A stretch of DNA of 64,000 nucleotides, taken from Schmidtea polychroa. Its lineage: Eukaryota. Of the stretch, positions 2,956 to 54,063 are shown piece by piece (position 1 is the first letter of the stretch; each line of letters opens with the position of its first letter). The notes beneath the pieces were generated by a model, which was not told the DNA's origin, did no database searches, and was given only the letters and a program-made list of their open reading frames with translations. Location of the stretch: positions 29,202,001 to 29,266,000 of the forward strand of contig CM097885.1 in the NCBI GenBank assembly GCA_044892525.1, read 5' to 3'. The translations under genes were made by a program, and so were the position numbers.

Positions 2956-3769
2956 CAATGACTCATTTTGTGGTTTTTATTGTGAAAAATAATTTACTTC
3001 GATGACCAACTTTTCCTTAACTTAAAATTTGGTTGTGAAAAATCCTATTTTATTGAATTTATTCGATTTGTAAACTTCATAAGAACATTTACAATTTGCT
3101 TAAAAAAAGTAAGTAATTCCAAAGCAAAAAAAGTGAAAAAATAAATGAATACCAAGAATATATATGAAAATTAAAAATGAAAAGAATAAAAGTATTTAAA
3201 GAAAAACAAGTCTTGACAGTACTAATGATATCATCTCACTGATTATTATTAGTTTTTTGTTGTGATTTGTTGTCTTGTTCTAACTGGAAACTTGTTTAAA
3301 CAATTGAATACAAAGTTTGGCCCATTACAAAGTTATTTTTGTACAGTGAAACATTAATATTACATACCGAGTTGGACTGGCCTATCAAGCTACCGGCGGA
3401 CCGTGCCGAATGTTAAATAAAAAATGTTTCTCTTAACAAAAAATTTCCTCAGAAAAATGAAAACAAAATTAAAAACAAGAGCAATTTTAAATTTTATTAA
3501 AATTAATTACTTTCAATATGGAAGGATTTTTAATGGAATTTTAAAAAAATCTGAAAAAAAAGAAAATTTTCAAAATTCAAATACATCAGTAATGCCCACA
3601 ATATTTAAAATTTTCTTAAATAAATAGTGCTAATTTAAAAAATTTTCATTTTTATTAATACCATTCATTAATATTATTAGCTAATTTTTCAAAATCAATT
3701 GAATCATCATCGCTATTTTAAGTTGAATATTTAAATTTGAATTTAGTAATCGATTCCTGTGTTTATTTT

Positions 3770-19915: not shown

Positions 19916-22900
19916 TGTTGGGGTTACACCTCGGCTGACCACTCTACCATGTTGACGGGTCTAAGGGTTGATTGTCCATCTCGAATAAAAGGTGCCACCG
20001 ATTTGTCAACCTGGAGTGAAACCCCACATAACTTTCTTCCAACATAGTGCCCGTGAATCACTTCACGTTGGTACTGCACTATGCAGGCGAGACGCCAGCA
20101 AGCAGGTGAGCTTCTGCCTTAAAACTACTCCTTGCTGAGGCCTCGACTTCCCATTCACGACTGCCGATAGAAGGGCTTACGTCCATTTCCTTACACAACC
20201 GCTTATCGGGATTCGCTGAATGCAAATTGGGAATTTCTCACTAGATCTTGCGGGTTCTCTACTCGACCCACTTAATTAAAGTCTAATTATTCATGAACGA
20301 AGACGTGTAAGACAACAAGATTTATTAATTTCAATGTTATGACACAAGGATTCAGCTGTACACTTTACTAACGTTTGTCGAAAGAAGAGAAAACATCATA
20401 ATCAACATAGATCGGATCCTTGTTCCTCATCCTGACCGCCACTGGGATTTTATTGTTTCTCCCATTCAGTGTCGGCGAATAATTCGTCGAGGTTGAAAAA
20501 CTCGGAAGCGTTCTCTTCCCACCTTACGCCAGCGGCTGATATGATTCGTGCCGAGGGTCCCGTTGTTAGGTCGATGGACACGTGAGAGTTGCCACCGCTG
20601 GTTGAGTCCTCTATTGCTGGGATGTTTGGCTTTGTAGTAGCGCGCTCGCGCTGTCTCTTCTTGCGCTCTGCACGAGAGAGTTGTTTTCGCTTGGGTTTGC
20701 TTGAAGATGCCACTTGCAGAAGGGTGACTGATACGGATGGACTAGCAGTGGGGGGCTTACTGGTACCCGTGATGACAACATCTGGTCGCTTGGGGGACAA
20801 TTCGGTTTCGACGCAGTCTCGGCACGGTCTCTTGAATGGTGGAGATGGATTCGAGGAAAGGTTGTGATGAGGCGGAAAGATGTCATCGGCCTCTCGGATG
20901 GGAATTTGCACTATTTTCCGGGTTGTAGCCGCCTGCACGTAAACCTTATGCAGTGCCTCGGATTGTTCTCTGATTAGACTTCTTTGGGCACGGCTCTCAG
21001 ATATTAGCGCGTCCCGGCAATGCTCACTACGATCGAGCTTCTTTTGGATCTCTTTCATCCGAGCGGGACTAAACCATGTCCCTTCCAGCTCGTCTATCTT
21101 CCTCTTGTAACGTCCAATCTGAGTTTGTAGGTCCTTTATCACCGTATTTTTATCCGCGCACGAGAAGCACGGCCGTAATGCTGATTTAGTGGTTGGTAGC
21201 ATGCTTGCTATAAATAATACTAATGAAATGTAGAACATACGATTTTAGAATAAATTAGATACGACCTACGGCCATTCGTGGATGCTTGACCGACGAAAAA
21301 AAAAAAAGAAAACTTATTCTACAATCCGGTTTTACCACGGATCTTATTTGTTGAAACAATTTATTTGACCAAATGCCATCGGTTTGACGCATGCTATTAA
21401 CTTTGACTCTCTATTGATCTAACTGTATACATGAGGGGCGTAATAATTAATAGGGGGTAAATATAATATTGGTGAAACACTATAATAATGCTTTAGTAGA
21501 GGGACATTATAGTATGCGACTACACCTTGCTATAAATTATCTATTTAAATTTATTGCAAACAAATTACTATCGCTATTCTCAACATATTTTTTGATTCGA
21601 AATTTGTTATTGGAAGTGCACTTTTAATTCGGTAGTGAATGTGATTATCTATATTGTCTACCATTTGTCTGAGAATATGTGATGAGTTTACATCAGCCAT
21701 TACTTGAACCCCCTAATGGGATATCTCATCGGTCATAACACATGTCCAAATTTACGGATACTACTGTCGACTAGTTGATTACATTATCGACCTATTGTGA
21801 ATGTCACGTGTCGCGACTATTATGTATGCTAGTCTGATATTTTGTGCTCTCACCACATGGATTCGCGTATGGCTACTATCTTATCTCACTCACTTGGTGT
21901 ATGCCATTTTCACGGTGATTTTATCGATCCTGCTGTCGTATGATTTTCTCTGCACAGTGATTTATTTGAGTTATGATTTATGCTACCGCCAGTTCTCATC
22001 GCGGAATTTTACCCTTATCAACTTGTGTGAATGATCACCATCGTTTGGAAATTTATTGGATCTTTTCAGTGATCGTCGAGGGAATAATTCTACCAAATAT
22101 TGGAGCATATTACTACTCTCGTCATTCTACTCGGATTTTCCTATTCAGATGTAATGCCGTCTCGATGAAACCTGCCCTTAGCCATTCGAAATTTTCCCTC
22201 AGGTTCAATAATTTGGATATATACAGTGATGACCTGGCTCTTATTGTAGAAATAAATGTTATTAATTAAATTTGGTAATATTTTACCTGTTTATAATTTT
22301 TGAAATAACTAAGTCTATAAAAACTTTCTGATTATAATACTAGAGAGGTTTTCGTAGAATCTCGCATTTTATAGTTTCGAGTTAGTTAAAGTTTTTAGAA
22401 TACTTTCGTAACTTGACATACAATCTGGACAGGTTAGATGACATTGGGTCTATGATAACGGAATTTCATACGAAATTAGTTCTACTGAGTCCGGCAAATA
22501 GACGTTGTCGCAATTAATTTGATAAAACCATGTTTCCAGATGAAGTGTACTATGAGATGTTGTTATTTTTGACGAAGTTCACTAAATCGTGGTCTGGATC
22601 TCTTTTTTCAATAGGGGTAAGATTTACGAAAACGACTTGACGAAAGAAAAAGGAATGCGACGCCCTCAGTCACTGTGCAAATCCTTGAAAATCCCTTCAT
22701 TCGTACGACTATCTTTGTGAAATCATTGTCTACCGGTTATTTTTTATCCATACCCCATTGTGATAATTTAGTCGCATCTTCAGCGATAGGACCCGTGAAG
22801 AAGCCTTCACATTTCGGCCCAATCTAGCTGCGTGATTGAAATACTCCATGTCCACCGGCTGAGCTCCCGAAGGCACCTCATACCATGACATGGAGTATCT

Positions 22901-23784
22901 CAACTCCACGTTACTCGTTAAATGGAAATTCATAAAATCTTTAATTCAAATAAAATACGGACATCTGGATAAAAATATTTTATTGATTCTGAAATACTTA
23001 AATAATACAAATTCCATCAATACGTTAAAGTTATTAAAATGGAGAATCAAATGAAGAGAGCTAACTAAAATATTTAATCGTTAATATTTAACATTACTAT
23101 TAGCTTTGCAAATACTTAAATAAATCTATAAACAAATGAAATACCCCTTACTATTGTTTAGGCTGAGTCAAAATTCAATGTTGTTCGTTCCAAATAGTTT
23201 GAATGGTGGTCCGTTGGATGTCGATTATTGTGATGAATGGTATTTCGGTCTCTGAACTGGTTTTGAATAGTCGTGGAGTTTTCTGAATGACGGTTGCTTG
23301 GCTAGTAGTGTCGATCCTATGAAATGCTCGGGGTTAACAGTAAAAACAGTAAACATTTTTCTTACCTATGAAATGCTCGGGGTTAACAGTAAATTTAATG
23401 TTTTTGGTAGTTGTATATATATCAAATTCTTATTTGTGCGGACCAATCAGAGTTGAGTACCGCTTATTTCTATTAATTTAATATAATTTTCTTGTTTTTA
23501 GGTTGTTTTTTCCTTATTTTCTTTATTTTTAATATGTTTTTCTATTTATTTCCTTAATTTCCTTATTATTTCTTGAATTCCTCTTTATTTATTTGTCAAC
23601 TTGTTCTATTTTAATCTTTTCTTAATTTTATTTTTTGTTTTAATTCTTATGTCTTAATTATTATTTTCCTTATATCTTATTCTATTTTATTTCTGATTTT
23701 ATTTATTTTATTATTATTTTTCTTAATGTTCTACTTCCCTACTTTCTTATTTCTCAACGATTAAATTCTCGACTCAGCCCAACA
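19916..23784 (-). repeat. 3' LTR (3,869 bp)
   Basis: Direct repeat of 46096-49964. Same length, and all ORF-track translations match between the two copies. Confidence 0.97.
20450..21238 (-). CDS. LTR-encoded protein, 3' LTR copy (coiled coil, Pro/Ser linker, basic NLS-like KPKRKQLSRAERKKRQRER, acidic tail); likely start at 21202
   Basis: 262-codon ORF, GC-richer than its surroundings and identical to the 5' LTR copy. A TAG acceptor at 21208-21209 precedes the MLPTTK ATG. Confidence 0.75.
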   Translation of the reverse strand: MFYISLVLFIASMLPTTKSALRPCFSCADKNTVIKDLQTQIGRYKRKIDELEGTWFSPARMKEIQKKLDRSEHCRDALISESRAQRSLIREQSEALHKVYVQAATTRKIVQIPIREADDIFPPHHNLSSNPSPPFKRPCRDCVETELSPKRPDVVITGTSKPPTASPSVSVTLLQVASSSKPKRKQLSRAERKKRQRERATTKPNIPAIEDSTSGGNSHVSIDLTTGPSARIISAAGVRWEENASEFFNLDELFADTEWEKQ

Positions 23785-24013
23785 AATCACTCGGGGACCC
23801 ATCAAAATTGCGTCCCGCAATTGCATAATTAACTTAATTCATTCATTCAAAAAAAAAAAATATAACACGAACACGGAAAATTATACAACAATGATAAAAA
23901 TTTTATTGTAAGATCAAGGTCAAAGCAAGATCAAGCAAGTATCACTTAAGGTGATAGTTTGTACATACAATAAAAGTTTCCACATATAATAACACAAATG
24001 TTTGAGTTAGAGT

Positions 24014-24682
24014 TTATGAACTGTTAACCATTGATGCTTCTGCTGGCGGCTGTTGGTTGGTTTGGGTATTGATGTTGAGATAGGTCTGACTATTAGATTT
24101 CGGCTGGATTGGTTGATTACTCGGGGTTCGAGGTCGGAATGGGGTTGGGTTAAGATTTGTCAGGGGCACTTCTTGAGGATTTTGGTTCGAGGTTACTCTT
24201 ATTGATGTCGAGATTCTACATCTATTTCGAATTTCGTAAATTTTCATGAATATTGGTAGACATAGGAGGAGGGTCTCTGCGATCACCACATATATGAGAT
24301 AATGGGTGTCATTGATCTCGGGAGGTGTTTTTGGCTTTTCTACAAGATTTTCAAAATCCTCTTGTTGCATTTGTTGTTCCAACTGGTCGATCTGTTGGCT
24401 TTGTTCGAAGATTTGTTTGTTTATCATTTTACAATTGGGGTTCTTTTTACACATTGTTTGGATGTTGTTGATGTGGGATCGGGTTGATTGAATGGTTTGG
24501 ATGATATGGGTTTTCACGGTCATAGGGTATGTGCATTTGCCGGATTCTTGTTTAGGTTCTTGATTTTGATTGCGGTAATCTCGTACGATTTTCGGTTGGG
24601 CGTTTAATTGTTTGTTCTCCATCGGAATCATCAATACCATCATTGTTATCATCATCTCGCCTCGCATGATACTATTATACAT
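24014..24682 (-). CDS. Accessory type I membrane-like protein of unknown function
   Basis: N-terminal hydrophobic segment (MMITMMVLMIP), Cys-containing and coiled-coil ectodomain, TM YLIYVVIAETLLLCLPIFM, and a Pro/Gln/Asn-rich tail. Confidence 0.75.
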   Translation of the reverse strand: MYNSIMRGEMMITMMVLMIPMENKQLNAQPKIVRDYRNQNQEPKQESGKCTYPMTVKTHIIQTIQSTRSHINNIQTMCKKNPNCKMINKQIFEQSQQIDQLEQQMQQEDFENLVEKPKTPPEINDTHYLIYVVIAETLLLCLPIFMKIYEIRNRCRISTSIRVTSNQNPQEVPLTNLNPTPFRPRTPSNQPIQPKSNSQTYLNINTQTNQQPPAEASMVNSS

Positions 24683-24722: not shown

Positions 24723-25475
24723 TTAATGGTTCTGATTTGGATTATTTTCACCGATTCTCATCAAGGTGGACTCTGCTTTAATTACCCTGTGTCTTAACTC
24801 GGGCAGCATTTCCAATTGTCGGTCTTTTTCACGGGCTTCTCTCTTTAGATGTCTAATTTCTTTTTCCAAGCGTCTAATTTCTTCCCTTTTCTTTTCAAGG
24901 TTTCTTTTTAGCTCGATTTGTAGGAGATCTTGTTCGTTTTCTTGCAGGTAATTTTGTTGTTGATGTTTTCTTTCTATTTCTCTATATTTGCGGACCCACT
25001 TCCTCATTTCTTTACTTTCCCGTTGGTTTTCTTCTAGTTGTCGTTTTAATTTATTTATAGCTGTTTGGCGCTCCTTCGCCTCAGTTTTCCAGTAGTCTTG
25101 GATTACCTCCTTTGCTTTGAAGCTTGCCCTCTCTTTCCATAGCTCTTCCGCTATCTTTTCCCAGTTTTTCCCTCGCTTCCTTTGTTCGTGTAGCCATTCA
25201 TTTTCCTCTTCCGTTTCTCTTTTTATTTCCCCCAACGCTTCGCACTCTTTCTTTAACACCTTTATCATTTTCCGGTCCTCCAGGTATTTGTTTATTAATC
25301 TCCCGTTTTCGTATTTCTCTTCCCGTAACTCGGCCTTTAGCGTTTGTGTTTCTGTTGTTTCTGCCTCAATCTCTCCCTCTTCTACGTCGCTCATAATTTC
25401 TATCATTTCCTCGATTTTCATATCTATAATATGTACAGTTAATGGTGCGCTATAGTGCGACTTATACGTATACAT
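24723..25475 (-). CDS. Accessory coiled-coil protein (likely start 25421, MKIEE...)
   Basis: Long E/K/R-rich heptad ORF with the A-rich sense-strand bias of the element. TAG acceptor 2 nt before the ATG at 25421. Confidence 0.75.
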   Translation of the reverse strand: MYTYKSHYSAPLTVHIIDMKIEEMIEIMSDVEEGEIEAETTETQTLKAELREEKYENGRLINKYLEDRKMIKVLKKECEALGEIKRETEEENEWLHEQRKRGKNWEKIAEELWKERASFKAKEVIQDYWKTEAKERQTAINKLKRQLEENQRESKEMRKWVRKYREIERKHQQQNYLQENEQDLLQIELKRNLEKKREEIRRLEKEIRHLKREAREKDRQLEMLPELRHRVIKAESTLMRIGENNPNQNH

Positions 25476-25589: not shown

Positions 25590-26645
25590 TCATACGAAGG
25601 TTTCCTCCTGGCCTACATAACCTTCATCACTATCGACCGCGGAATGTAACTGTATCGCAATAGGGTCGTATGGTAGGTAATATTGGGGAATTTGAGCTCT
25701 CAATTCACTAACTTCGTCTCTTAGAGCTCGAGTGATATTCAATTCCTCGTCGAGCAGATAGGTGAGATACCTTGTCTCTTCATCTTGCGCCTCTATCTGT
25801 TTGTCTAGGGCCTTGATTTTCTCGTCGCCCTTCCATTTTTCAATTTCTATTTCTAAGTTTTTAATATTTTCGGTGTACATTTTCCTTTCGTTTTCTAATT
25901 TTCTGTTTTTTCCTGCTAGGACCATGTTTCTTTGTTCCAGCGATCCTTGTAATCCATTAAGGTCTCTTTTCATCTCTTCTACCTGATTTACTAATTCCAC
26001 AACCCGTCCCGCTTGTTGGGTTATCATCTCTTCCATTGCGGCGTTCTCGTGCTCTCTTATGTCGCACTTCATTGCCAAATGTCGCTCAAACTCCATAGCC
26101 TTTGTTTGCCAGGTTTGGCTTCGGGCGGCGACCTTTCTCAACCTTTTCAATTCTTCCTTTATTATTAAATTCTCCTCCCATTTACCTTGTTCGCTTTCAT
26201 ATCCGAGTCTCATGGGCAATTCTTTCATCTCTTTTTTCATTTCTCTGTTTTGTCTTTTCCATTTCCTCGCTTCTGCCACTAAGTGCATCATTTTCCTGTC
26301 TTCTATTTGTTTTTCCGCTTCGCGCTTGGTGTTCTCATCGGTAAGTCTCTTTCTCGCTTCCTGCACTAGCTGCTTTAAGTAGTGGCTGTGTGCTTCTTGG
26401 CGGGTATTTTCTAGTGACGCCCATTTTGATGCTCTTTTGCATGCTTCTGCTTCCGCTCTTAAGTTGTGTATTAACCATTGGTATTGACTATTCTCATCTT
26501 CTCTAGTTTCTTCGATGTGATTTCGGGTGAGATTAGTTAGTTGGAACATTACTTTGTTCCATTTTTTGTTATGTTCTCGGGGAATTTGTGTCTTGTTGAC
26601 ATTGGTTGGGGCTATCGCAGTTTCGGTTATTTTCTCTTTTGTCAT
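25590..26645 (-). CDS. Accessory coiled-coil protein (351 aa)
   Basis: Long open frame, predominantly heptad and charged, with the same codon bias as the element. Confidence 0.8.
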   Translation of the reverse strand: MTKEKITETAIAPTNVNKTQIPREHNKKWNKVMFQLTNLTRNHIEETREDENSQYQWLIHNLRAEAEACKRASKWASLENTRQEAHSHYLKQLVQEARKRLTDENTKREAEKQIEDRKMMHLVAEARKWKRQNREMKKEMKELPMRLGYESEQGKWEENLIIKEELKRLRKVAARSQTWQTKAMEFERHLAMKCDIREHENAAMEEMITQQAGRVVELVNQVEEMKRDLNGLQGSLEQRNMVLAGKNRKLENERKMYTENIKNLEIEIEKWKGDEKIKALDKQIEAQDEETRYLTYLLDEELNITRALRDEVSELRAQIPQYYLPYDPIAIQLHSAVDSDEGYVGQEETFV

Positions 26646-26838: not shown

Positions 26839-28227
26839 TTATTCCGTTCTACCCTTCTCCTCTTTCCTCACGGTCATCTTGATATATATGGTATCATTTC
26901 TCGCCATATCTTCCACTCTTTGTTGTGAGATGAACGTGGGTGCTCCTGTTGCTGATCCTTCTTCGTTGAGGGGCCTCTGGTAAGCTATTTGATTCCCCGT
27001 TGTTTTGAAGCTTTGCTCATGTATACTTTGGTTGTTCATCAGAGTAATATCGATTTTTGCCTGGAACGGCCATTCTAATATTTCGTCGTATTCTCCTTTA
27101 CATAACAGAAAGAAAATCGAAAAGTGCGTGTTTAATCCGGTTCCGTCCCCGTTGGGATATATCTTCATTTTCATTTTGTACCCATTTTTCCAAGAGTGGA
27201 ATGTAGGACTTGTTATTCTTGTCTCTTCTCCGGTTTTTGCTTTTCGTATTCTTTCTTTTACTCCCGTTATTTTCCATATGTAGGGTGCTGTTGGGGTTAT
27301 CTCATTTAGATTTATTTCCCGTATTTTCTGATGTAGCTCCTTGGCCTGATTATTACTGATTTCTGTTCGGTTTATTTGCATCTTTATGTTTGCTCGGGCT
27401 TCTTCGAACGCTTCCCTTTCTTCTAGTAGTTCTTTGACTAACACTTTCAACGATGTTATCTCTATCTCCATTTGTTTTACTTTCTCTTCGCTTTCTTGTA
27501 GCGCAGTCGACCACATTTCTGCGTGAGTTGAAGCATTTTCTACTAAATGATGTGGTAACTCACCTCGGTGTAGTAGTTTCTGACAACCCCATCTACCTAG
27601 TACACATGTCATTCTTTTCTTTGCGCATTCCCTTAGATGCTGTGCCACCTTCATTATTTCCCCTTGGTTACATCCGTTTGGGCATTCCCCACTGAACTCT
27701 GCACATACTCTCTCCTCTTGGACATTGTGATGTTTGAGGGTGAGATTTATCCACGTATCTATTTCTCCACAGTGTTCACATCTTTCCAATCTCTCTTCAC
27801 ACTGCCTTTGATGCTCTTTTTCTTCGCTTGCTCGAATGGTTTTATGGCACCTTTCACACTGGCCAATTCTGTACATACATTCTCCCATATGTTGTACTAC
27901 CTTCCATATTACTCCTTTCCATTCGCATGGGGCATTTTTGCATCCCAGGTTGGTGTTTAACATGTCTTTCACTGCGGCTTTATCCTCGTTAGTGTCTTCT
28001 AAACTCGATATTAGTGTCTCTTTACACACCGGGCACCTCTGTGGTCTATTCTTTATTGCTTCACTGATACATTCTTTACATACTCTGCATCCACATTGCG
28101 TTTGGTGAGGTTCCTTTAACAACTTTTCACATATTCCGCACATAACATGTTTGTGTATTCTGATCGTTGTAGATTTTCGGACTTGCTCGACAATCTCTCT
28201 GAACTCTTCTCTTTGTCGTTTATCCAT
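26839..28227 (-). CDS. Intronless TRAF (TNF receptor-associated factor) homologue: RING, TRAF zinc fingers, coiled coil, MATH domain
   Basis: RING CGICEKLLKEPHQTQCGCRVCKECI...CPVC, followed by repeated CxxC..H..C fingers. The MATH domain contains YIWKI, GYKMKMKIYPNGDG and GEYDEILEWPF. Confidence 0.95.
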   Translation of the reverse strand: MDKRQREEFREIVEQVRKSTTIRIHKHVMCGICEKLLKEPHQTQCGCRVCKECISEAIKNRPQRCPVCKETLISSLEDTNEDKAAVKDMLNTNLGCKNAPCEWKGVIWKVVQHMGECMYRIGQCERCHKTIRASEEKEHQRQCEERLERCEHCGEIDTWINLTLKHHNVQEERVCAEFSGECPNGCNQGEIMKVAQHLRECAKKRMTCVLGRWGCQKLLHRGELPHHLVENASTHAEMWSTALQESEEKVKQMEIEITSLKVLVKELLEEREAFEEARANIKMQINRTEISNNQAKELHQKIREINLNEITPTAPYIWKITGVKERIRKAKTGEETRITSPTFHSWKNGYKMKMKIYPNGDGTGLNTHFSIFFLLCKGEYDEILEWPFQAKIDITLMNNQSIHEQSFKTTGNQIAYQRPLNEEGSATGAPTFISQQRVEDMARNDTIYIKMTVRKEEKGRTE

Positions 28228-28312: not shown

Positions 28313-28672
28313 TTAGGGTTCGGAAGAGTCGGCTTCGTGCCCACTCTCCTCTCTATTCATTAGCCATTCCGACCAGTCTTCTATTTCTGTCTGTTCTGCT
28401 TCCTCCCTCATTCGGTCTATTTCAATTTCCTGTCGACGGCTATATTGGGTTATCCTCTCTATCTCTCTTTGCATTTGTTCGATTTTTAACCTCTGGTCTT
28501 CAATTATCTTCAAATAACTAAATCCTCTGTTCATACTCTCGATCAGGTTTCTGTGCATCGTCAGTCCTTGTTCTTGCAAATTGGACACTAATTGTGCTAA
28601 TACGGCACATTGTTGCTTCCATAATTCTTCAGTTACTGTATTGTGGTTCATTTCGTTATTTCCTTGATCCAT
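28313..28672 (-). CDS. Small accessory coiled-coil protein (about 119 aa from MDQGNN)
   Basis: Open frame immediately downstream of the polyprotein, with a TAG 2 nt before the ATG at 28672. The track start at 28696 is a TTG. Confidence 0.65.
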   Translation of the reverse strand: MDQGNNEMNHNTVTEELWKQQCAVLAQLVSNLQEQGLTMHRNLIESMNRGFSYLKIIEDQRLKIEQMQREIERITQYSRRQEIEIDRMREEAEQTEIEDWSEWLMNREESGHEADSSEP

Positions 28673-42686: not shown

Positions 42687-43952
42687 GATTGGTGTTCTAG
42701 GTTCGTCTGTTTCTTTTAAATTGTCTAACGATGTGACTAAACTTTGGGCTGATAATTCCTCGGTTGACGTTGCTAAACTATTAGTGATATCGGACAGACT
42801 TTCTCTACTTCGAGATCGACTAGGGGTATATCCGAGATTTTCTTGGTCAAATATGGGTACTTGATTGGTTCTTCTGGATCCTTGTGATATTCCTCTTTGA
42901 TGTTTAATGGATCGTCCTCTTTTGAGTTGTTGTAATTCGTCTCCTGAAAATAATACGTCTCCTGGCTTACTAGAAGATCTAAGATTGGGTTTATCCGTGA
43001 TTCCTTTCTTACGCTTCTTGGTAATTAGCGGCTATTGAATCGGACGCGTTCGGTTCTGATTGTGTTTCTAATTCTTGGCAGATGGCTGCTAATACTTCTT
43101 CCGTTCTGGAGTCTTCCGGTCGCTGTGTCTCTCGGTGCGGGTTCTGAATGGATTTATCCTTGGTTGATTGTCGATTTTCTTCGAATTCCTTTTGTGCAGG
43201 TTCTGGATTGTCTTGGTTGGCTGGATTGGCTTGATATCTAAAATGAAAAAATGATCTCGTGTTGCATTTGCTTACACGACTTCATCATTCTTTCTACAAC
43301 ATTCAAAAACAGACACCTTTTAGGTTTCTGTTTGTGCTTCCCCTATCTTTTGTGAAATCCTGTCTGCGGTTTATAATATCCCATCAGCCCGTATTTTCCG
43401 TCGATTTTAAATTATCTATATGGGGTAGTAACAATTATCTATAAAGTCGTAATAATTATCTATTCGTTATCAATTATAGTAAAAATAGGTCGTTGTCGGT
43501 CTCTGCTTATTACCCCCCTTTCATTTTCCTAATCCTTTTGCGCTGTTGTCGCTATTTTACTTTTCATATTCACTATTATTACGCTCGGTTCTACTCTGGA
43601 ACCAATAAAATGCATTTTTCCCGGTTTAACCCAAAAAAAAAAAAAAATATTCCGTAGAGTTTCTCTACTTCACTGGGATCCCTTTAATTAGTTAGTTACT
43701 TTCCTCTTTACTCATTATCATCATTTCATCTATTCTTTATTTTCTATTATCTCTTTAATTCGTTTCCTTCTTCCCTTTCCTTTTTCATTATAATCTTATT
43801 TTCTTTTCCACGAGCTCGTTTATTCCCTCTCTAAACTCTAATTTTCAAAATTACATTCAATTTGTTCTAGCTAGCTTTAATATTCCATATCACTAGTAAT
43901 TTAAATATTATCTCATTGTAGCTTAACTGCTATCTCTCGCTTTTCTAGGCCT

Positions 43953-44692
43953 TTACGACTGGCTGGCACTATTCAACAGCTCAATCTTCTTCCTTCTGAT
44001 CGGTTGGACTATTCAACAACTCGATCTTACGACTGGCTGGCACTATTCAACAGCTCAATCTTCCTCCTTCCTGATCGGTTGGACTTTTCACAACTCGACC
44101 TTACGACTGGCTGGCACTATTCAACAGCTCAATCTTCCTCCTTCCTGATCGGTTGGACTTTTCACAACCCGACCTTACGACTGGCTGGCACTATTCAACA
44201 GCTCAATCTTCTTCCTTCTGATCGGTTGGACTATTCAACAACTCGATCTTACGACTGGCTGGCACTATTCAACAGCTCAATCTTCCTCCTTCTTGATCGG
44301 TTGGACTTTTCACAACTCGACCTTACGACTGGCTGGCACTATTCAACAGCTCAATCTTCCTCCTTCTTGATCGGTTGGACTTTTCACAACTCGACCTTAC
44401 GACTGGCTGGCACTATTCAACAGCTCAATCTTCCTCCTTCTTGATCGGTTGGACTTTTCACAACTCGACCTTACGACTGGCTGGCACTATTCAACAGCTC
44501 AATCTTCCTCCTTCTTGATCGGTTGGACTTTTCACAACTCGACCTTACGACTGGCTGGCACTATTCAACAGCTCAATCTTCCTCCTTCCTGATCGGTTGG
44601 ACTTTTCACAACTCGACCTTACGACTGGCTGGCACTATTCAACAGCTCAGTCTTCCTCCTTGACCGGCTGGATTATTCGACAGCTCGGCTTC
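43953..44692. repeat. Tandem array of about 10 x 74-bp units in the element leader
   Basis: TTACGACTGG recurs at 43953, 44027, 44101, 44175, 44249, 44323, 44397, 44471, 44545 and 44619. The last unit is degenerate. Confidence 0.97.
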
Positions 44693-45267: not shown

Positions 45268-45753
45268 TCATTCGCCATAATAGACCATATGGGTCTCTTT
45301 TATTTCATATTTGCACATCGTGCATCTTTTTAGGTCTTTTACACACTCTTCACAGTGACTGAGGTGTCCACACGGTAAGAATAATACGCGAATAGGACGG
45401 AGTTTGCAGGCTATACAAGTTCGTAATTGGTTAACTTTTTCCTGTATTTTTTGTTCGATTGCATCTGGTATTGTATTTAGTGAGTCTTTTAGACGCTGAT
45501 AATCTAGATTTAATGTTGGGTGGTTCAATCTCTCTTGATACCACTGATATACGGTTTCGGGGTTTATTTTTCCATCTGGGCGACTTAGGCCTGTGGCTAA
45601 TATCATATGATTAGGTACGACTGGTGTTTGTCCGATTGCTTGTAGTAATATCGCGTTGATTTTTTCTCTTTTATGCGTCAGTGTTGTTAGGGAGTCGTTT
45701 TCTATATCGATAAACTTGAGCAGTTGTTGCATTTGGTTCGCGAATTCTGTCAT
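45268..45753 (-). CDS. 161-aa protein with an IAP-type C-terminal RING (no BIR domain), upstream of gag
   Basis: EQKIQEKVNQLRTCIACKLRPIRVLFLPCGHLSHCEECVKDLKRCTMCKYEI matches the IAP RING pattern. Strong acceptor TTACTTTTCCAACAG|CT-ATG, and AATAAA at 45120-45125 followed by a GT/T-rich tract. Confidence 0.85.
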   Translation of the reverse strand: MTEFANQMQQLLKFIDIENDSLTTLTHKREKINAILLQAIGQTPVVPNHMILATGLSRPDGKINPETVYQWYQERLNHPTLNLDYQRLKDSLNTIPDAIEQKIQEKVNQLRTCIACKLRPIRVLFLPCGHLSHCEECVKDLKRCTMCKYEIKETHMVYYGE

Positions 45754-46070: not shown

Positions 46071-46088
46071 ATCCCGGCTGAGCCCCCA
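46071..46088 (-). promoter_or_regulatory. Primer-binding site complementary to the 3' end of tRNA-Pro
   Basis: TGGGGGCTCAGCCGGGAT, 16/18 identical to the MLV tRNA-Pro PBS (TGGGGGCTCGTCCGGGAT), located 7 nt inside the 5' LTR boundary. Confidence 0.9.
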
Positions 46089-46629
46089 AAAATCATGTTG
46101 GGGTTACACCTCGGCTGACCACTCTACCATGTTGACGGGTCTAAGGGTTGATTGTCCATCTCGAATAAAAGGTGCCACCGATTTGTCAACCTGGAGTGAA
46201 ACCCCACATAACTTTCTTCCAACATAGTGCCCGTGAATCACTTCACGTTGGTACTGCACTATGCAGGCGAGACGCCAGCAAGCAGGTGAGCTTCTGCCTT
46301 AAAACTACTCCTTGCTGAGGCCTCGACTTCCCATTCACGACTGCCGATAGAAGGGCTTACGTCCATTTCCTTACACAACCGCTTATCGGGATTCGCTGAA
46401 TGCAAATTGGGAATTTCTCACTAGATCTTGCGGGTTCTCTACTCGACCCACTTAATTAAAGTCTAATTATTCATGAACGAAGACGTGTAAGACAACAAGA
46501 TTTATTAATTTCAATGTTATGACACAAGGATTCAGCTGTACACTTTACTAACGTTTGTCGAAAGAAGAGAAAACATCATAATCAACATAGATCGGATCCT
46601 TGTTCCTCATCCTGACCGCCACTGGGATT

Positions 46630-47418
46630 TTATTGTTTCTCCCATTCAGTGTCGGCGAATAATTCGTCGAGGTTGAAAAACTCGGAAGCGTTCTCTTCCC
46701 ACCTTACGCCAGCGGCTGATATGATTCGTGCCGAGGGTCCCGTTGTTAGGTCGATGGACACGTGAGAGTTGCCACCGCTGGTTGAGTCCTCTATTGCTGG
46801 GATGTTTGGCTTTGTAGTAGCGCGCTCGCGCTGTCTCTTCTTGCGCTCTGCACGAGAGAGTTGTTTTCGCTTGGGTTTGCTTGAAGATGCCACTTGCAGA
46901 AGGGTGACTGATACGGATGGACTAGCAGTGGGGGGCTTACTGGTACCCGTGATGACAACATCTGGTCGCTTGGGGGACAATTCGGTTTCGACGCAGTCTC
47001 GGCACGGTCTCTTGAATGGTGGAGATGGATTCGAGGAAAGGTTGTGATGAGGCGGAAAGATGTCATCGGCCTCTCGGATGGGAATTTGCACTATTTTCCG
47101 GGTTGTAGCCGCCTGCACGTAAACCTTATGCAGTGCCTCGGATTGTTCTCTGATTAGACTTCTTTGGGCACGGCTCTCAGATATTAGCGCGTCCCGGCAA
47201 TGCTCACTACGATCGAGCTTCTTTTGGATCTCTTTCATCCGAGCGGGACTAAACCATGTCCCTTCCAGCTCGTCTATCTTCCTCTTGTAACGTCCAATCT
47301 GAGTTTGTAGGTCCTTTATCACCGTATTTTTATCCGCGCACGAGAAGCACGGCCGTAATGCTGATTTAGTGGTTGGTAGCATGCTTGCTATAAATAATAC
47401 TAATGAAATGTAGAACAT
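46630..47418 (-). CDS. LTR-encoded protein, 5' LTR copy (likely start 47382)
   Basis: Same translation as 20450-21238. Acceptor TAG at 47388-47389; the stop codon overlaps an AATAAA. Confidence 0.75.
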   Translation of the reverse strand: MFYISLVLFIASMLPTTKSALRPCFSCADKNTVIKDLQTQIGRYKRKIDELEGTWFSPARMKEIQKKLDRSEHCRDALISESRAQRSLIREQSEALHKVYVQAATTRKIVQIPIREADDIFPPHHNLSSNPSPPFKRPCRDCVETELSPKRPDVVITGTSKPPTASPSVSVTLLQVASSSKPKRKQLSRAERKKRQRERATTKPNIPAIEDSTSGGNSHVSIDLTTGPSARIISAAGVRWEENASEFFNLDELFADTEWEKQ

Positions 47419-49544
47419 ACGATTTTAGAATAAATTAGATACGACCTACGGCCATTCGTGGATGCTTGACCGACGAAAAAAAAAAAAGAAAACTTATTCT
47501 ACAATCCGGTTTTACCACGGATCTTATTTGTTGAAACAATTTATTTGACCAAATGCCATCGGTTTGACGCATGCTATTAACTTTGACTCTCTATTGATCT
47601 AACTGTATACATGAGGGGCGTAATAATTAATAGGGGGTAAATATAATATTGGTGAAACACTATAATAATGCTTTAGTAGAGGGACATTATAGTATGCGAC
47701 TACACCTTGCTATAAATTATCTATTTAAATTTATTGCAAACAAATTACTATCGCTATTCTCAACATATTTTTTGATTCGAAATTTGTTATTGGAAGTGCA
47801 CTTTTAATTCGGTAGTGAATGTGATTATCTATATTGTCTACCATTTGTCTGAGAATATGTGATGAGTTTACATCAGCCATTACTTGAACCCCCTAATGGG
47901 ATATCTCATCGGTCATAACACATGTCCAAATTTACGGATACTACTGTCGACTAGTTGATTACATTATCGACCTATTGTGAATGTCACGTGTCGCGACTAT
48001 TATGTATGCTAGTCTGATATTTTGTGCTCTCACCACATGGATTCGCGTATGGCTACTATCTTATCTCACTCACTTGGTGTATGCCATTTTCACGGTGATT
48101 TTATCGATCCTGCTGTCGTATGATTTTCTCTGCACAGTGATTTATTTGAGTTATGATTTATGCTACCGCCAGTTCTCATCGCGGAATTTTACCCTTATCA
48201 ACTTGTGTGAATGATCACCATCGTTTGGAAATTTATTGGATCTTTTCAGTGATCGTCGAGGGAATAATTCTACCAAATATTGGAGCATATTACTACTCTC
48301 GTCATTCTACTCGGATTTTCCTATTCAGATGTAATGCCGTCTCGATGAAACCTGCCCTTAGCCATTCGAAATTTTCCCTCAGGTTCAATAATTTGGATAT
48401 ATACAGTGATGACCTGGCTCTTATTGTAGAAATAAATGTTATTAATTAAATTTGGTAATATTTTACCTGTTTATAATTTTTGAAATAACTAAGTCTATAA
48501 AAACTTTCTGATTATAATACTAGAGAGGTTTTCGTAGAATCTCGCATTTTATAGTTTCGAGTTAGTTAAAGTTTTTAGAATACTTTCGTAACTTGACATA
48601 CAATCTGGACAGGTTAGATGACATTGGGTCTATGATAACGGAATTTCATACGAAATTAGTTCTACTGAGTCCGGCAAATAGACGTTGTCGCAATTAATTT
48701 GATAAAACCATGTTTCCAGATGAAGTGTACTATGAGATGTTGTTATTTTTGACGAAGTTCACTAAATCGTGGTCTGGATCTCTTTTTTCAATAGGGGTAA
48801 GATTTACGAAAACGACTTGACGAAAGAAAAAGGAATGCGACGCCCTCAGTCACTGTGCAAATCCTTGAAAATCCCTTCATTCGTACGACTATCTTTGTGA
48901 AATCATTGTCTACCGGTTATTTTTTATCCATACCCCATTGTGATAATTTAGTCGCATCTTCAGCGATAGGACCCGTGAAGAAGCCTTCACATTTCGGCCC
49001 AATCTAGCTGCGTGATTGAAATACTCCATGTCCACCGGCTGAGCTCCCGAAGGCACCTCATACCATGACATGGAGTATCTCAACTCCACGTTACTCGTTA
49101 AATGGAAATTCATAAAATCTTTAATTCAAATAAAATACGGACATCTGGATAAAAATATTTTATTGATTCTGAAATACTTAAATAATACAAATTCCATCAA
49201 TACGTTAAAGTTATTAAAATGGAGAATCAAATGAAGAGAGCTAACTAAAATATTTAATCGTTAATATTTAACATTACTATTAGCTTTGCAAATACTTAAA
49301 TAAATCTATAAACAAATGAAATACCCCTTACTATTGTTTAGGCTGAGTCAAAATTCAATGTTGTTCGTTCCAAATAGTTTGAATGGTGGTCCGTTGGATG
49401 TCGATTATTGTGATGAATGGTATTTCGGTCTCTGAACTGGTTTTGAATAGTCGTGGAGTTTTCTGAATGACGGTTGCTTGGCTAGTAGTGTCGATCCTAT
49501 GAAATGCTCGGGGTTAACAGTAAAAACAGTAAACATTTTTCTTA

Positions 49545-49630
49545 CCTATGAAATGCTCGGGGTTAACAGTAAATTTAATGTTTTTGGTAGTTGTATATAT
49601 ATCAAATTCTTATTTGTGCGGACCAATCAG
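49545..49630 (-). promoter_or_regulatory. Putative LTR core promoter (CCAAT and TATA-like) and first splice donor
   Basis: A CCAAT box at about 49623-49627 lies about 25 nt upstream of a TATATATAC tract (minus strand). CATAG|GTAAGA donor at 49545. The same arrangement occurs in the 3' LTR (23365-23450). Confidence 0.5.
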
Positions 49631-49964
49631 AGTTGAGTACCGCTTATTTCTATTAATTTAATATAATTTTCTTGTTTTTAGGTTGTTTTTTCCTTATTTT
49701 CTTTATTTTTAATATGTTTTTCTATTTATTTCCTTAATTTCCTTATTATTTCTTGAATTCCTCTTTATTTATTTGTCAACTTGTTCTATTTTAATCTTTT
49801 CTTAATTTTATTTTTTGTTTTAATTCTTATGTCTTAATTATTATTTTCCTTATATCTTATTCTATTTTATTTCTGATTTTATTTATTTTATTATTATTTT
49901 TCTTAATGTTCTACTTCCCTACTTTCTTATTTCTCAACGATTAAATTCTCGACTCAGCCCAACA

Positions 49965-52642: not shown

Positions 52643-52672
52643 TATTTTATTTTGATTTTTATCAATAGTTTT

Positions 52673-53762
52673 GGTACTTCCGTGTTATCTTACCCCCAAA
52701 AATTAAATTAAAAAAGAACACAATTATTATATTTATTTTCTAAATCACAGTTACAAACTCAGCAAATGTTTGTAAAGAGTTTGTAAATGGTCATCCAGGT
52801 GGCCAGAAAACCACAACGTCGTTGAGAATAGTGTCGGACACATCGGCACTGTTGCTTAGAACACGTTTGCGCCACATAAACTCGCACATGTTCGAGTCAA
52901 TCATCTGTCTATGAGTTACATTTTGTCGTTTGTTCCTTTCCTTTGCCGCCCTCCACGTTCTCTCAATTGTCTGTGTGTGGGCACCGGTAACAGGGTTTAA
53001 AAAATTTTGTGAATGGTTAACTGTGCTGTGTGTGTAACCTCGTCCTGGTATCTCAGCAATTCCAGCGTACGCCCTCCACTCGTCTGATACGATGTTACTC
53101 CCTGGTGCAATAGACTAAGTTATTATTGGCATCAAAGTAGCTGAAAGTTCGATCTGGGACAGTGTACAAAAAACAATCACCAGTTTCTTTACAGATACCA
53201 CCAAAAACCCATTGTTGGGGAAACACACGACCGACTTGGTTTTTGCGCCGTGAAAATAAACTTTCATCTATTTCAACTGTTGTGTTAGGACCTCCAATTA
53301 TCATTGGATTAACCAGTAATGTATTTGCACAGACCTCACGGAGATACATGTTCCAGTCAACGACACTGCTTTCGCCAATATCTAGTTCATTTTCGCAGAA
53401 ATTAATACTTGTCAACTGCTTTGACCAACAATAAATGAACAGTACAATTTGTCTGAAAGGCAATTTGGAGCCTTGTAGTCATGTTCCTCGTCGAACTTGT
53501 ACATCTTCCCGGTATTCACGTCGTATTCAGCGGTCGTGATGGCCATTAAGTGACAAAGTCATGGCGTGATTATTGCTACAAATACGCGGGTTGTGCAAAA
53601 TTCCATGTTGCTGCAAAAACTGCACAGCACTGGCTTTGTCGTTTACTAACGCTGATAGCCTTAATAAATTCATGTTCAATAATGTATTCTCTCATTTTTA
53701 TATTGTTATTTTAATTGTATTTTATAATTTAATTTTTGGGGGTAAGATAACACGGAAGTACC
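52673..53762 (-). mobile_element. Merlin (IS1595/ISXO2-like) DNA transposon, 1,090 bp, with pseudogenised transposase (about 52791-53673)
   Basis: Perfect 38-bp TIR starting GGTACTTCCGTG and 8-bp TSD ATAGTTTT. Motifs VEIDESLF, WVFGG, VSDEWRAY, TVNHS.NF and HTQTIE are present, with a frameshift and an in-frame stop near 53110-53150. Confidence 0.92.
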
Positions 53763-54063
53763 ATAGTTTTAAGCAAAAAAATAACGTTAAATTCCTGGAA
53801 AATACGAATCTTATAAAAATATATATTTTAAATTTAACCCTTAATTACATTGTGTAGCAAATTTGCAACATACCAGCATTTCGCCTAAAATCAATAAGAT
53901 CTAACCATTTCATAGTGTTGCTTGTCAGCTACAAAGCTGTTTAACGGATTTTAAATTTTACATTAGATTTTTTAAATTATTTTTATAATTATCTATTTAG
54001 TCAAAGGAACGTTATTTTATTTTATTCAAAATAAATAAAAAAAATGCTATTAAGGGTTAAAAT

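Follow-up and report, generated by a model that had tools for sequence, protein, structure and literature searches.

Retroelements normally lose an intron that is spliced from their genomic RNA, and the first jump of retroviral reverse transcription usually comes after a few hundred bases. Open reading frames (ORFs) that overlap a long terminal repeat (LTR), such as MMTV sag and HIV nef, lie in U3, upstream of the start site. Basic regulators with a structured response RNA are known from HIV (Rev/RRE, Tat/TAR), HTLV-1 (Rex/RxRE) and MMTV (Rem). In planarians, the giant elements Burro1/GYPSM1 measure about 30 kb and encode a 4,600-aa polyprotein with TRAF/MATH and RING cargo; the Burro section of the review describing them names no LTR gene, introns or R/U5 layout (PMC6431247). 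Burro1 has also been reported to aid regeneration (Lee et al. 2026, as cited in PMC13465017). No account of an LTR gene or an LTR intron in such elements was found in the literature searched, whose scope left out most subscription papers.

The window analysed here (64,000 nucleotides of Schmidtea polychroa contig CM097885.1) holds an element that is Burro-like by its described architecture, i.e. a length of about 30 kb, an in-frame Env between Gag and Pol, ankyrins and TRAF/MATH (Table 1). It shares with Burro the Gag, CCHC, mononegavirus-type fusion glycoprotein between Gag and protease, RT, RH, IN and ankyrins (PMC6431247). Burro1 differs in having an IAP with a BIR domain, whereas no BIR was found in the window element, which has a RING-only ORF without BIR match (45753-45268) and a TRAF as a separate ORF after pol. 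The TG..CA ends of the LTRs, a 4-bp target duplication around the element, the tRNA primer site and the domain order PR-RT-RH-IN are those of a Ty3/gypsy LTR retrotransposon. Comparison of the two LTRs over their 3,869 bp gave 0 mismatches. No polypurine tract was found before the 3' LTR, and a conserved non-purine block stands there instead in the 3/3 junctions inspected.

Table 1. Features of the window element, listed along its strand, with the parts of the LTR given for the 3' copy
Feature	Position	Strand	Remarks
Window element		-	30,049 bp; Burro-like Ty3/gypsy retrotransposon with two LTRs
5' LTR	46096..49964	-	Same parts as 3' LTR, coordinates +26,180
Primer-binding site for tRNA-Pro	46071..46088	-	Begins 7 nt past 5' LTR
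Polyprotein, 4,617 aa	28833..42686	-	Gag - fusion glycoprotein - PR - RT - RH - IN - ankyrin
3' LTR	19916..23784	-	3,869 bp; 100% identical to 46096-49964
U3 (inferred)	23391..23784	-	394 nt, A-rich, contains promoter
LTR first 20 nt	23765..23784	-	Complementary to stretch ahead of donor 2 (23175-23155, exon 2)
CCAAT box and TATA box	23414..23447	-	ATTGG 23447-23443; TATA 23421-23414; kept in 23 aligned LTRs
Exon 1 (unit U1), 25 nt	23366..23390	-	Initiator A position; identity with U2 starts at 23390
Intron 1, 49 nt	23317..23365	-	GT..AG; exon 1 repeated in its last 25 nt (unit U2, 23341-23317)
Mutation hotspot	23342..23351	-	Inferred first strand-transfer junction; directly before U2
Exon 2, 165 nt	23152..23316	-	Non-coding; ATG-free in 120/122 copies
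Intron 2, 1,944 nt	21208..23151	-	Donor and acceptor conserved; middle subfamily-specific
PAS1, AATAAA	22979..22984	-	Within intron 2; candidate end of short R
Two-hairpin RNA structure	22779..22910	-	Within intron 2; z -4.6
CDS, 250 aa	20450..21202	-	dN/dS 0.09-0.14 in 8 between-subfamily pairs
CDS features			CxxC; predicted coiled coil 15-98; second CxxC; Lys/Arg-rich motif 168-188; acidic-hydrophobic tail
PAS2, AATAAA	20321..20326	-	Past ORF; LTR nt 3459; predicted end of spliced mRNA
Donor 3, GAC|GTAAG	20180	-	Within 20037..20181; 93/101 copies
Second covarying RNA structure	20037..20181	-	10/47 pairs changed on both sides, 22 sequences

The LTR reading frame and its predicted protein

A first-pass annotation of this DNA had proposed that the LTR is itself a gene with promoter, introns, ORF and poly(A) signal. 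The DNA of about 140 genomic LTR copies supports such a unit, since conservation far beyond controls is seen in the CCAAT box, the TATA box, the initiator, a poly(A) signal and two GT-AG introns. Given a frame under selection and these conserved motifs, the LTR is likely a spliced gene. The copies are related, so that their counts overstate independence, and likeness to the ORF was the criterion for the first 100 loci. Solo LTRs carry the whole ORF, as had also been suggested, target duplications flanking 9 of the 60 loci fetched on both sides. Contigs from four runs guessed to be RNA were compared with most of the LTR; two gave no matches and two gave patchy, mostly diverged ones (12 and 118 records), with two joints that lack GT..AG ends and may be unaligned middles; these matches were taken as evidence neither for nor against transcription.

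The frame originally noted, 262 codons from ATG to stop (21238-20450), exists in both LTRs, but its start had to be moved. Codons 1-12 are open only in the subfamily of the window, the ATG at codon 13 (21202) is present in 101/101 copies examined, and a YAG acceptor lies 4-12 nt ahead of it in 100/101; we therefore reject the 262-aa start and take the protein to have 250 residues. Across LTR copies the frame is under strong purifying selection (dN/dS about 0.1), and neutral evolution was not seen: over codons 9-98 in 10 diverged copies, pS was 0.59-0.90 against a pN of 0.05-0.07.

The promoter-like motifs previously placed 350-400 nt from the LTR start proved to be above chance. They include ATTGG at LTR nt 338 and TATATATA at nt 364; a search of the genome with a degenerate 26-nt motif spanning the CCAAT box gave 789 exact matches (0 with the control), and an initiator A lies 31 nt past the TATA box in 75/80 copies. 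Pol II would very probably initiate at 23390, about LTR nt 395, where the identity between exon 1 and its downstream copy begins; this start lies upstream, not downstream, of the ORF (from nt 2583). Further on, the donor of intron 2 reads GTRAG in 122/133 copies (controls 3 and 8), and the window copy has 40 ATGs in intron 2 and 0 in exons 1 and 2. A genome probe for a copy without intron 2 found 2 matches, against 4 for its control. The protein could come from the hundreds of LTRs counted by the promoter motif, among them solo LTRs, a point of relevance to the persistence of Burro in planarian stem cells.

An analogy to MMTV sag, drawn in the first-pass annotation, is apt insofar as the ORF is borne by the LTR and, as with sag and nef, duplicated in both LTRs and present in solo ones. 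It is otherwise loose: the ORF, in U5 or R and not in U3, is found past the strand-transfer junction and 2.2 kb downstream of the start (start and junction at nt 395-444). A selected protein gene downstream of the start within the LTR is not the known sag/nef arrangement, and no sequence likeness of the LTR protein to MMTV sag or HIV nef was found.

Modelling predicts that the protein is a coiled-coil dimer with an Arg-rich motif. The dimer model scored 0.57 (best control 0.00), with runs agreeing in at least 88% of contacts and a pLDDT of at least 73; the mark for a dimer was reached by 21/30 solved pairs and 17/29 eukaryotic pairs but by 0/23 single chains. The Arg-rich motif, conserved among copies, holds 11 K/R per 21 residues, and a helix is predicted at 177-189. 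Searches of Pfam, by words, of the Atlas (best 0.84), and of viral and PDB folds gave no protein match, and weak matches of the disordered tail to haemagglutinin HA2 (E 0.004 or worse) were taken as chance. The GTW motif is kept in 11 remote relatives, most of which also have an Arg-rich run downstream. The link to Rev comes from a single weak match in a relative (E 0.0013; 19.1 bits, below a cut-off of 22), and the families shown for the aligned members (25 of 28) do not include Rev. The 13 remote relatives are without names and resemble chimeric gene models.

Judged by covariation among copies, two RNA structures flank the ORF. In the one within intron 2, 13/48 pairs changed on both sides among 29 sequences; an Rfam search of it gave no match. 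A 67-codon frame over the hairpin was rejected, as changes there occur in pairs, as base pairs. The first nucleotides of the LTR also covary with the stretch of exon 2 to which they are complementary, which was their best pairing site in 59/59 variants.

The protein is small and basic, and its predicted source is a fully spliced mRNA; together with the modelled oligomerising helices and the Arg-rich motif, this recalls Rev, Rex, Rem and Tat, and the conserved structured RNA kept only in unspliced RNA would be a candidate response element as for Rev and Rex (the RxRE of HTLV-1 is mentioned in PMC3694450). Homology to these factors does not rise above threshold, and the host here is a Ty3/gypsy element; one literature search gave no account of a Rev-like protein in such an element. 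Tentatively, and as a lead only, the protein may be a factor like Rev/Rex or Tat whose targets would be the unspliced RNA or the promoter of its own element. It could quite conceivably be a host-directed accessory factor instead, like the TRAF, RING and ankyrin cargo, its basic motif only a nuclear signal and the RNA structures binding Gag or host proteins. Burro elements do carry apoptosis and ubiquitin modules (PMC6431247; PMC13465017), and neither sequence nor fold searches connect the protein to Rev, Rex or Tat above threshold; however, the placement in the LTR, the dependence on full splicing and the Arg-rich helix would suit an early regulator. The question concerns function only, and the anatomy of our best model is compatible with either answer.

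The repeated first exon and the probable junction before its copy

Intron 1 has GT..AG ends in 80/80 two-unit copies, with lengths of 45-51 nt. Exon 1 and its repeat at the intron end are identical within the same copy in 76/80, across 17 unit types including rare variants, while the units differ between subfamilies; in a sample selected by promoter alone, the identity holds in 20/27. A start at the second unit without splicing was discarded: that unit lies 80 nt from the TATA box, and its tracking of both unit U1 and U3 would be left unaccounted for.

In two subfamilies, variability over 10-nt windows of the LTR peaks directly before the second unit, with G-rich changes. Among 46 copies of one unit type, 1 five-mer precedes the first unit and 12 precede the second, and the first differing base before the latter is G in 27/44, at a linker G content of 14%. 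Among LTR pairs whose U3 is at least 95% alike (118 in all), exon 2 falls below 85% likeness in 82; since 0/33 pairs with like exon 2 have unlike U3, this breakpoint signal comes mostly from one U3 type. A weaker variable patch occurs near LTR nt 3550-3570, in one subfamily only.

From the sequences, hotspot and unit identity fit reverse transcription of a 5'-spliced RNA that jumps to an unspliced 3' copy. Copying of the cap at the start site has been shown in HIV-1 (PMC12172438), mismatch at the U3-R junction is described for Ty1 and MLV (PMC5399748), and breakpoints at that junction have been reported for fission-yeast elements (10.1101/2022.12.06.519325). As in HIV-1, Ty1 and MLV, an extra G and small errors lie immediately before the copied RNA 5' end; unlike there, the scar is 49 nt downstream of the start, before the exon 1 copy that ends the intron.

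With good confidence, we propose that splicing of the genomic RNA would remove the cap-proximal intron from the 5' end and leave the 3' copy untouched. The strong-stop DNA, about 3.4 kb long, would end in exon 1 and land on the exon-like intron end of the 3' copy, so that the units would stay equal, a cap-derived G and other errors would enter at the join, and the intron would occasionally be lost. Intron 1 is likely kept because each round of reverse transcription would restore it; the repetition of the first exon would be a simple way to escape intron loss, readable in the copies. The 11/91 copies that have lost intron 1 are explained equally well by slippage between the repeats. With either of the poly(A) sites discussed below, reverse transcription would run for about 3.4 kb before its first jump, a length far above the retroviral norm.

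Poly(A) signals and the extent of R

The first-pass annotation had derived an R region of about 3 kb from AATAAA signals in the ORF stop and shortly past it. The latter, PAS2, stands, with conservation in 98/101 copies and in 12/12 sequence types (0.42 in shuffled sequence). The one overlapping the stop codon (LTR nt 3331) is not conserved, being present in 44/101 copies, and is rejected as a poly(A) signal. A 3-kb R is not established, because a conserved signal within intron 2, PAS1, had been overlooked. It lies 406 nt after the start site in AT-rich surroundings and is found as AATAAA in 26/29 sequence types, at shifting positions (shuffled mean 10.3; 0/1000 shuffles as high); the other three types include the young 30-copy B/C subfamily, and the two checked have ATTAAA or AGTAAA. 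Its conservation at this distance makes an R of about 0.43 kb, with the gene in a 3-kb U5, more likely, and on sequence grounds we consider this layout at least as likely as a 3-kb R. The conservation of PAS2 does not decide the length of R, since the spliced mRNA needs PAS2 in any case. No genomic copy with a poly(A) tail behind PAS1 or PAS2 was found by probing (0 matches for each).

In the short-R layout, which we mildly favour for this step, the genome would be the RNA retaining intron 2; it would pass PAS1 of the 5' LTR via U1 snRNP bound at donor 2 and end at PAS1 of the 3' LTR. Each RNA structure would then be present a single time, at the 5' end, as expected of a packaging or export signal. 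Foamy virus similarly has a donor upstream of a poly(A) signal within R in both LTRs, where U1 snRNP binding would suppress the 5' site; its R ends at +193 with no gene behind, whereas here there are two introns, two signals and a gene (PMC3694450). Its structural switch was not reproduced by folding of the window copy with U3, which left donor 2 unpaired at 0.60 against 0.44, and direct masking of this donor by the LTR start was accordingly rejected. As donor 2 precedes PAS1 in both LTRs and folding does not hide it, the switch between 5' and 3' sites is unexplained. RNA spliced at intron 2, devoid of PAS1 and of the first structure, would with good probability end at PAS2 and be translated into the protein; its source could be either LTR of an element or a solo one.

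The model as a whole, i.e. a selected 250-codon frame, a likely two-intron mRNA, a U5 of probably 3 kb behind a short R and an intron 1 that is likely kept, has in our judgement somewhat the better of the case. We would regard it as unlikely that a Ty3/gypsy element is organised like a complex retrovirus within its own LTR, with a Rev/Tat-like gene in a 3-kb U5 expressed only from fully spliced RNA, a response element in a retained intron, a 3.4-kb run before the first jump and a cap-proximal intron made self-renewing by the repeated first exon, so that splicing of the genome would not cost the element this intron.

Perhaps, with rather less probability than the short-R model, the genomic RNA ends at PAS2 and an R of about 3.07 kb holds the whole gene, PAS1 being a site of early termination or nothing. 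PAS2 is indeed the better conserved signal, donor 2 could silence PAS1 in both LTRs, and donor 3 follows PAS2 by 146 nt in an HIV-1-like order (PMC3694450). Yet donor 3 is present in both LTRs too, the conservation of PAS2 is expected anyway, PAS1 is retained despite its shifting positions, and many copies have the join at the extreme 5' end, a position that jumps would tend to miss if the overlap were 3 kb long. Very improbable is a sag-like gene in U3, its ORF having its own upstream promoter and the genomic RNA coming from another promoter close to PAS2 and having a very short R: strong-stop DNA would be of ordinary size, there would be no read-through problem and U3 signals are known for RSV, MMTV and HTLV-1 (PMC3694450), but no conserved TATA box or initiator was seen by eye between stop and PAS2, and the hotspot, extra G and unit homogenisation at LTR nt 395-468 require reverse-transcribed RNA that starts there. 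That chance motifs in AT-rich DNA surround a neutral passenger ORF is extremely improbable: AATAAA is common (the first 400 nt have 9 and the internal region 38), but synonymous change is saturated while non-synonymous change is low, and the motifs are conserved far above controls.

The element and its LTR copies

The gene-like LTR under study is the 3' LTR of a 30,049-bp minus-strand element with the target duplication CCGG at its ends. Its 18-nt primer site, 7 nt past the 5' LTR, matches the 3' end of tRNA-Pro from this genome, and its 4,617-aa polyprotein reads Gag, CCHC, fusion glycoprotein, PR, RT, RH, IN and ankyrins, with TRAF and RING ORFs on either side. The element is Burro-like, a known kind, agreeing in this architecture with planarian Burro elements as given in excerpts of PMC6431247. 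The literature covered contained no description of this LTR layout; the two primary Burro papers and their supplements, outside that scope, may already note the ORF. The acceptor at the RING ORF is likely to partner an LTR splice donor.

Features of the element and neighbouring sequence (window positions)
Feature	Position	Strand	Remarks
LTRs	19916-23784, 46096-49964	minus	3,869 bp each, identical, TG..CA ends
TRAF (whole: RING, zinc fingers, MATH) and 4 further ORFs, 2 coiled-coil-like	26839-28227, 25590-26645, 24723-25475, 24014-24682, 28313-28672	minus	between pol and 3' LTR
RING ORF	45268-45753	minus	161 aa; BIR absent; strong acceptor 2 nt upstream of ATG
5' internal leader	43950-44690		~10 tandem copies, 74-nt unit
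38-nt block	23785-23822	minus	small hairpin
TTTTCRYTTGATCC	23056-23044	minus	in intron 2
Two-hairpin element	22910-22779		in intron 2
Possible pseudoknot in block after donor near 20180	~20075-20030	minus	
CTCAGCC	46088-46071, 23175-23155, ~22865-22855	minus	primer site, before intron 2 donor, hairpin loop
CTCAGCC complement	23784-23765	minus	LTR start
hAT-type transposase frame	54258-55892	minus	544 aa, intact
Inverted repeats	52672-52715, 53720-53763		1.1-kb stretch with inverted ends near hAT frame

No polypurine tract was found ahead of the 3' LTR in the window copy, L113 or L116; the 38-nt block stands there instead, identical across three diverged copies. TGATT occurs both ahead of the 3' LTR and past the 5' LTR. 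Elsewhere in the genome, tRNA-Pro(TGG) genes form a long tandem array with a 475-bp unit (G000:C1:130,901,000-130,952,000, L091), and the tRNA-Pro motif has 2,164 matches genome-wide.

Searching the genome with the ORF gave 146 scored matches among 7,002 candidates, arranged as 64 pairs, 2 triples and 12 unpaired. We fetched 60 copies from this search, 40 older ones from a second, and a further 40 chosen by promoter motif alone out of 789 genome matches. A target duplication flanks 9 of the first 60 loci in solo-LTR fashion. The ORF is still visible in 32 of the 40 promoter-picked copies; in the other 8 the LTR likeness stops within ~1.1 kb, 7 of them continuing as unrelated frames or simple repeats. 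Tandem elements with three LTRs in common occur at G000:C4:12.79-12.81 Mb and C2:177.68-177.73 Mb. LTRs are mosaic (L031, L044, L103 and L106 against the window), with extra breakpoints that fall within the ORF and close to the two structured blocks.

The LTR as a probable gene

As the first-pass annotation proposed, the LTR is very probably itself a gene, judging from its conserved promoter, splice signals and selected ORF. CCAAT, TATA, initiator and AG/GTAAG line up in 23 LTRs whose ORFs fall to ~70% DNA identity. A second donor, that of intron 2, is present in 122 of 133 LTRs (3 and 8 in control windows), and the exon upstream of it is ATG-free in 120 of the 122; the window's intron 2 holds 40 ATGs. 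In the predicted mRNA the coding exon would be preceded by exon 1, of 25 nt, and exon 2, of 165 nt. TTTTCRYTTGATCC, retained in intron 2 of most LTR sequence types, may pair with U2 snRNA or with exon 2. Four copies (L150, L159, L172, L138) have lost a large part of intron 2, yet retain the hairpin and an ATG preceded by a pyrimidine tract.

Subfamilies become alike only from the 13th codon of the ORF onward, where an ATG stands in all 101 tallied copies with a YAG acceptor just upstream in 100; the preceding 12 codons are open in the window's subfamily only. This conserved ATG and acceptor set the protein, as read from the alignment, at 250 aa instead of the 262 codons first annotated. The dN/dS comparison suggested with that annotation gave 0.09-0.14 for eight between-subfamily pairs, so the ORF is not neutral, and 0.24 for one within-subfamily pair; codons 9-98 against 10 diverged copies gave pS 0.59-0.90 and pN 0.05-0.07. 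These copies were chosen by ORF likeness, which accounts for the intact frames, not for the excess of silent change.

Structure prediction places helices at residues 15-40, 46-98 and 177-189, the remainder being disordered (mean pLDDT 62). A two-fold coiled coil is predicted, residues 8-116 scoring 0.57 as such against 0.00 for the best control, and 11 K/R fall within residues 167-187. Unnamed relatives retrieved by a profile search number 11, with E between 1e-8 and 5e-4, all having a GTW motif and most running on into an Arg-rich stretch; one has a sub-threshold Pfam REV match, and protein family and fold searches otherwise returned no match. A putative Rev/Rex- or Tat-like role is a tentative best guess, and a host-directed role is just as likely.

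Probable RNA start and strand transfer

Intron 1 ends in a 25-nt repeat (unit U2) of exon 1 (unit U1). Among 100 loci, 80 carry both units and 11 one, with 9 unclassed. In all 80 two-unit copies intron 1 is GT..AG and 45-51 nt long, and in 76, spanning 17 unit types, the units are identical, rare variants occurring in both together (L055, L060, L066, L106, L124). Identity starts at the initiator A or 1-3 nt upstream; in 75 of the 80 this A lies 31 nt past TATA. The most variable LTR bases adjoin U2 upstream (in two subfamilies, 12-13 haplotypes for every 10 nt, the median being 2), and the first differing base there is G in 27 of 44 cases (linker G content 14%); bases ahead of U1 are constant. 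U3, U1 and U2 are common to LTRs with unlike exon 2 in 82 of 118 pairs, the reverse in 0 of 33.

Unit identity, hotspot, extra G and shared U3/U1/U2 would all arise if the reverse-transcribed RNA started at U1 and were spliced there, its strong-stop DNA landing on the U2 unit in the 3' copy, which is unspliced: a start and landing that we infer from related copies. Strong-stop DNA would be ~3.43 kb long. In HIV-1, cap copying and junction errors have been demonstrated (excerpts of PMC12172438). The ORF is outside U3, the probable RNA start lying upstream of it, and the MMTV sag analogy of the first-pass annotation is a loose one.

Poly(A) signals, R and RNA structures

Two AATAAA signals had been annotated: the one after the ORF (PAS2, 20326-20321) is conserved in 98 of 101 copies, the one within the stop codon, in 44, is not. 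Testing for earlier signals found another inside intron 2 (PAS1, 22984-22979), present in 26 of the 29 types, against a mean of 10.3 after shuffling. A genome ending at PAS1 would have an R of ~0.43 kb, with the gene in a 3-kb U5 and PAS2 serving spliced mRNA only. We lean towards this arrangement. In foamy virus, according to excerpts of PMC3694450, U1 snRNP suppresses the 5' poly(A) site, with a donor upstream of the poly(A) signal in both LTRs; the intron 2 donor and PAS1 stand likewise here. Against the short R, three types, one a young subfamily, lack AATAAA at PAS1, and no switch was found that would free PAS1 in the 3' LTR. The 3-kb R annotated earlier, with genomic RNA ending at PAS2, is, given the conservation of PAS1, probably wrong, if still a serious contender.

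The LTR's initial 20 nt find their best pairing site in the stretch before the intron 2 donor in 59 of 59 variants, and the two covary (own -27.8, swapped -24.9 kcal/mol; 0/5,000); folding the window copy did not show this pairing hiding the donor. The CTCAGCC sites and their complement could draw RNA ends close to each other or bind tRNA-Pro.

The two-hairpin element has a folding z of -4.6 and both-side changes in 13 of 48 pairs (29 sequences), against 8.0 shuffled and 0-4 in slid controls; splicing would remove it along with intron 2, in the manner of a packaging or export signal. In the block after the donor near 20180, 10 of 47 pairs changed on both sides (22 sequences; a figure without control), and a bulge WCCAAC pairing with GTTGGA just behind the stem could form a pseudoknot. 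Neither structure matched Rfam. A more diverged hairpin copy, from another element, lies beside an LTR at L073:5255-5330 (plus strand).
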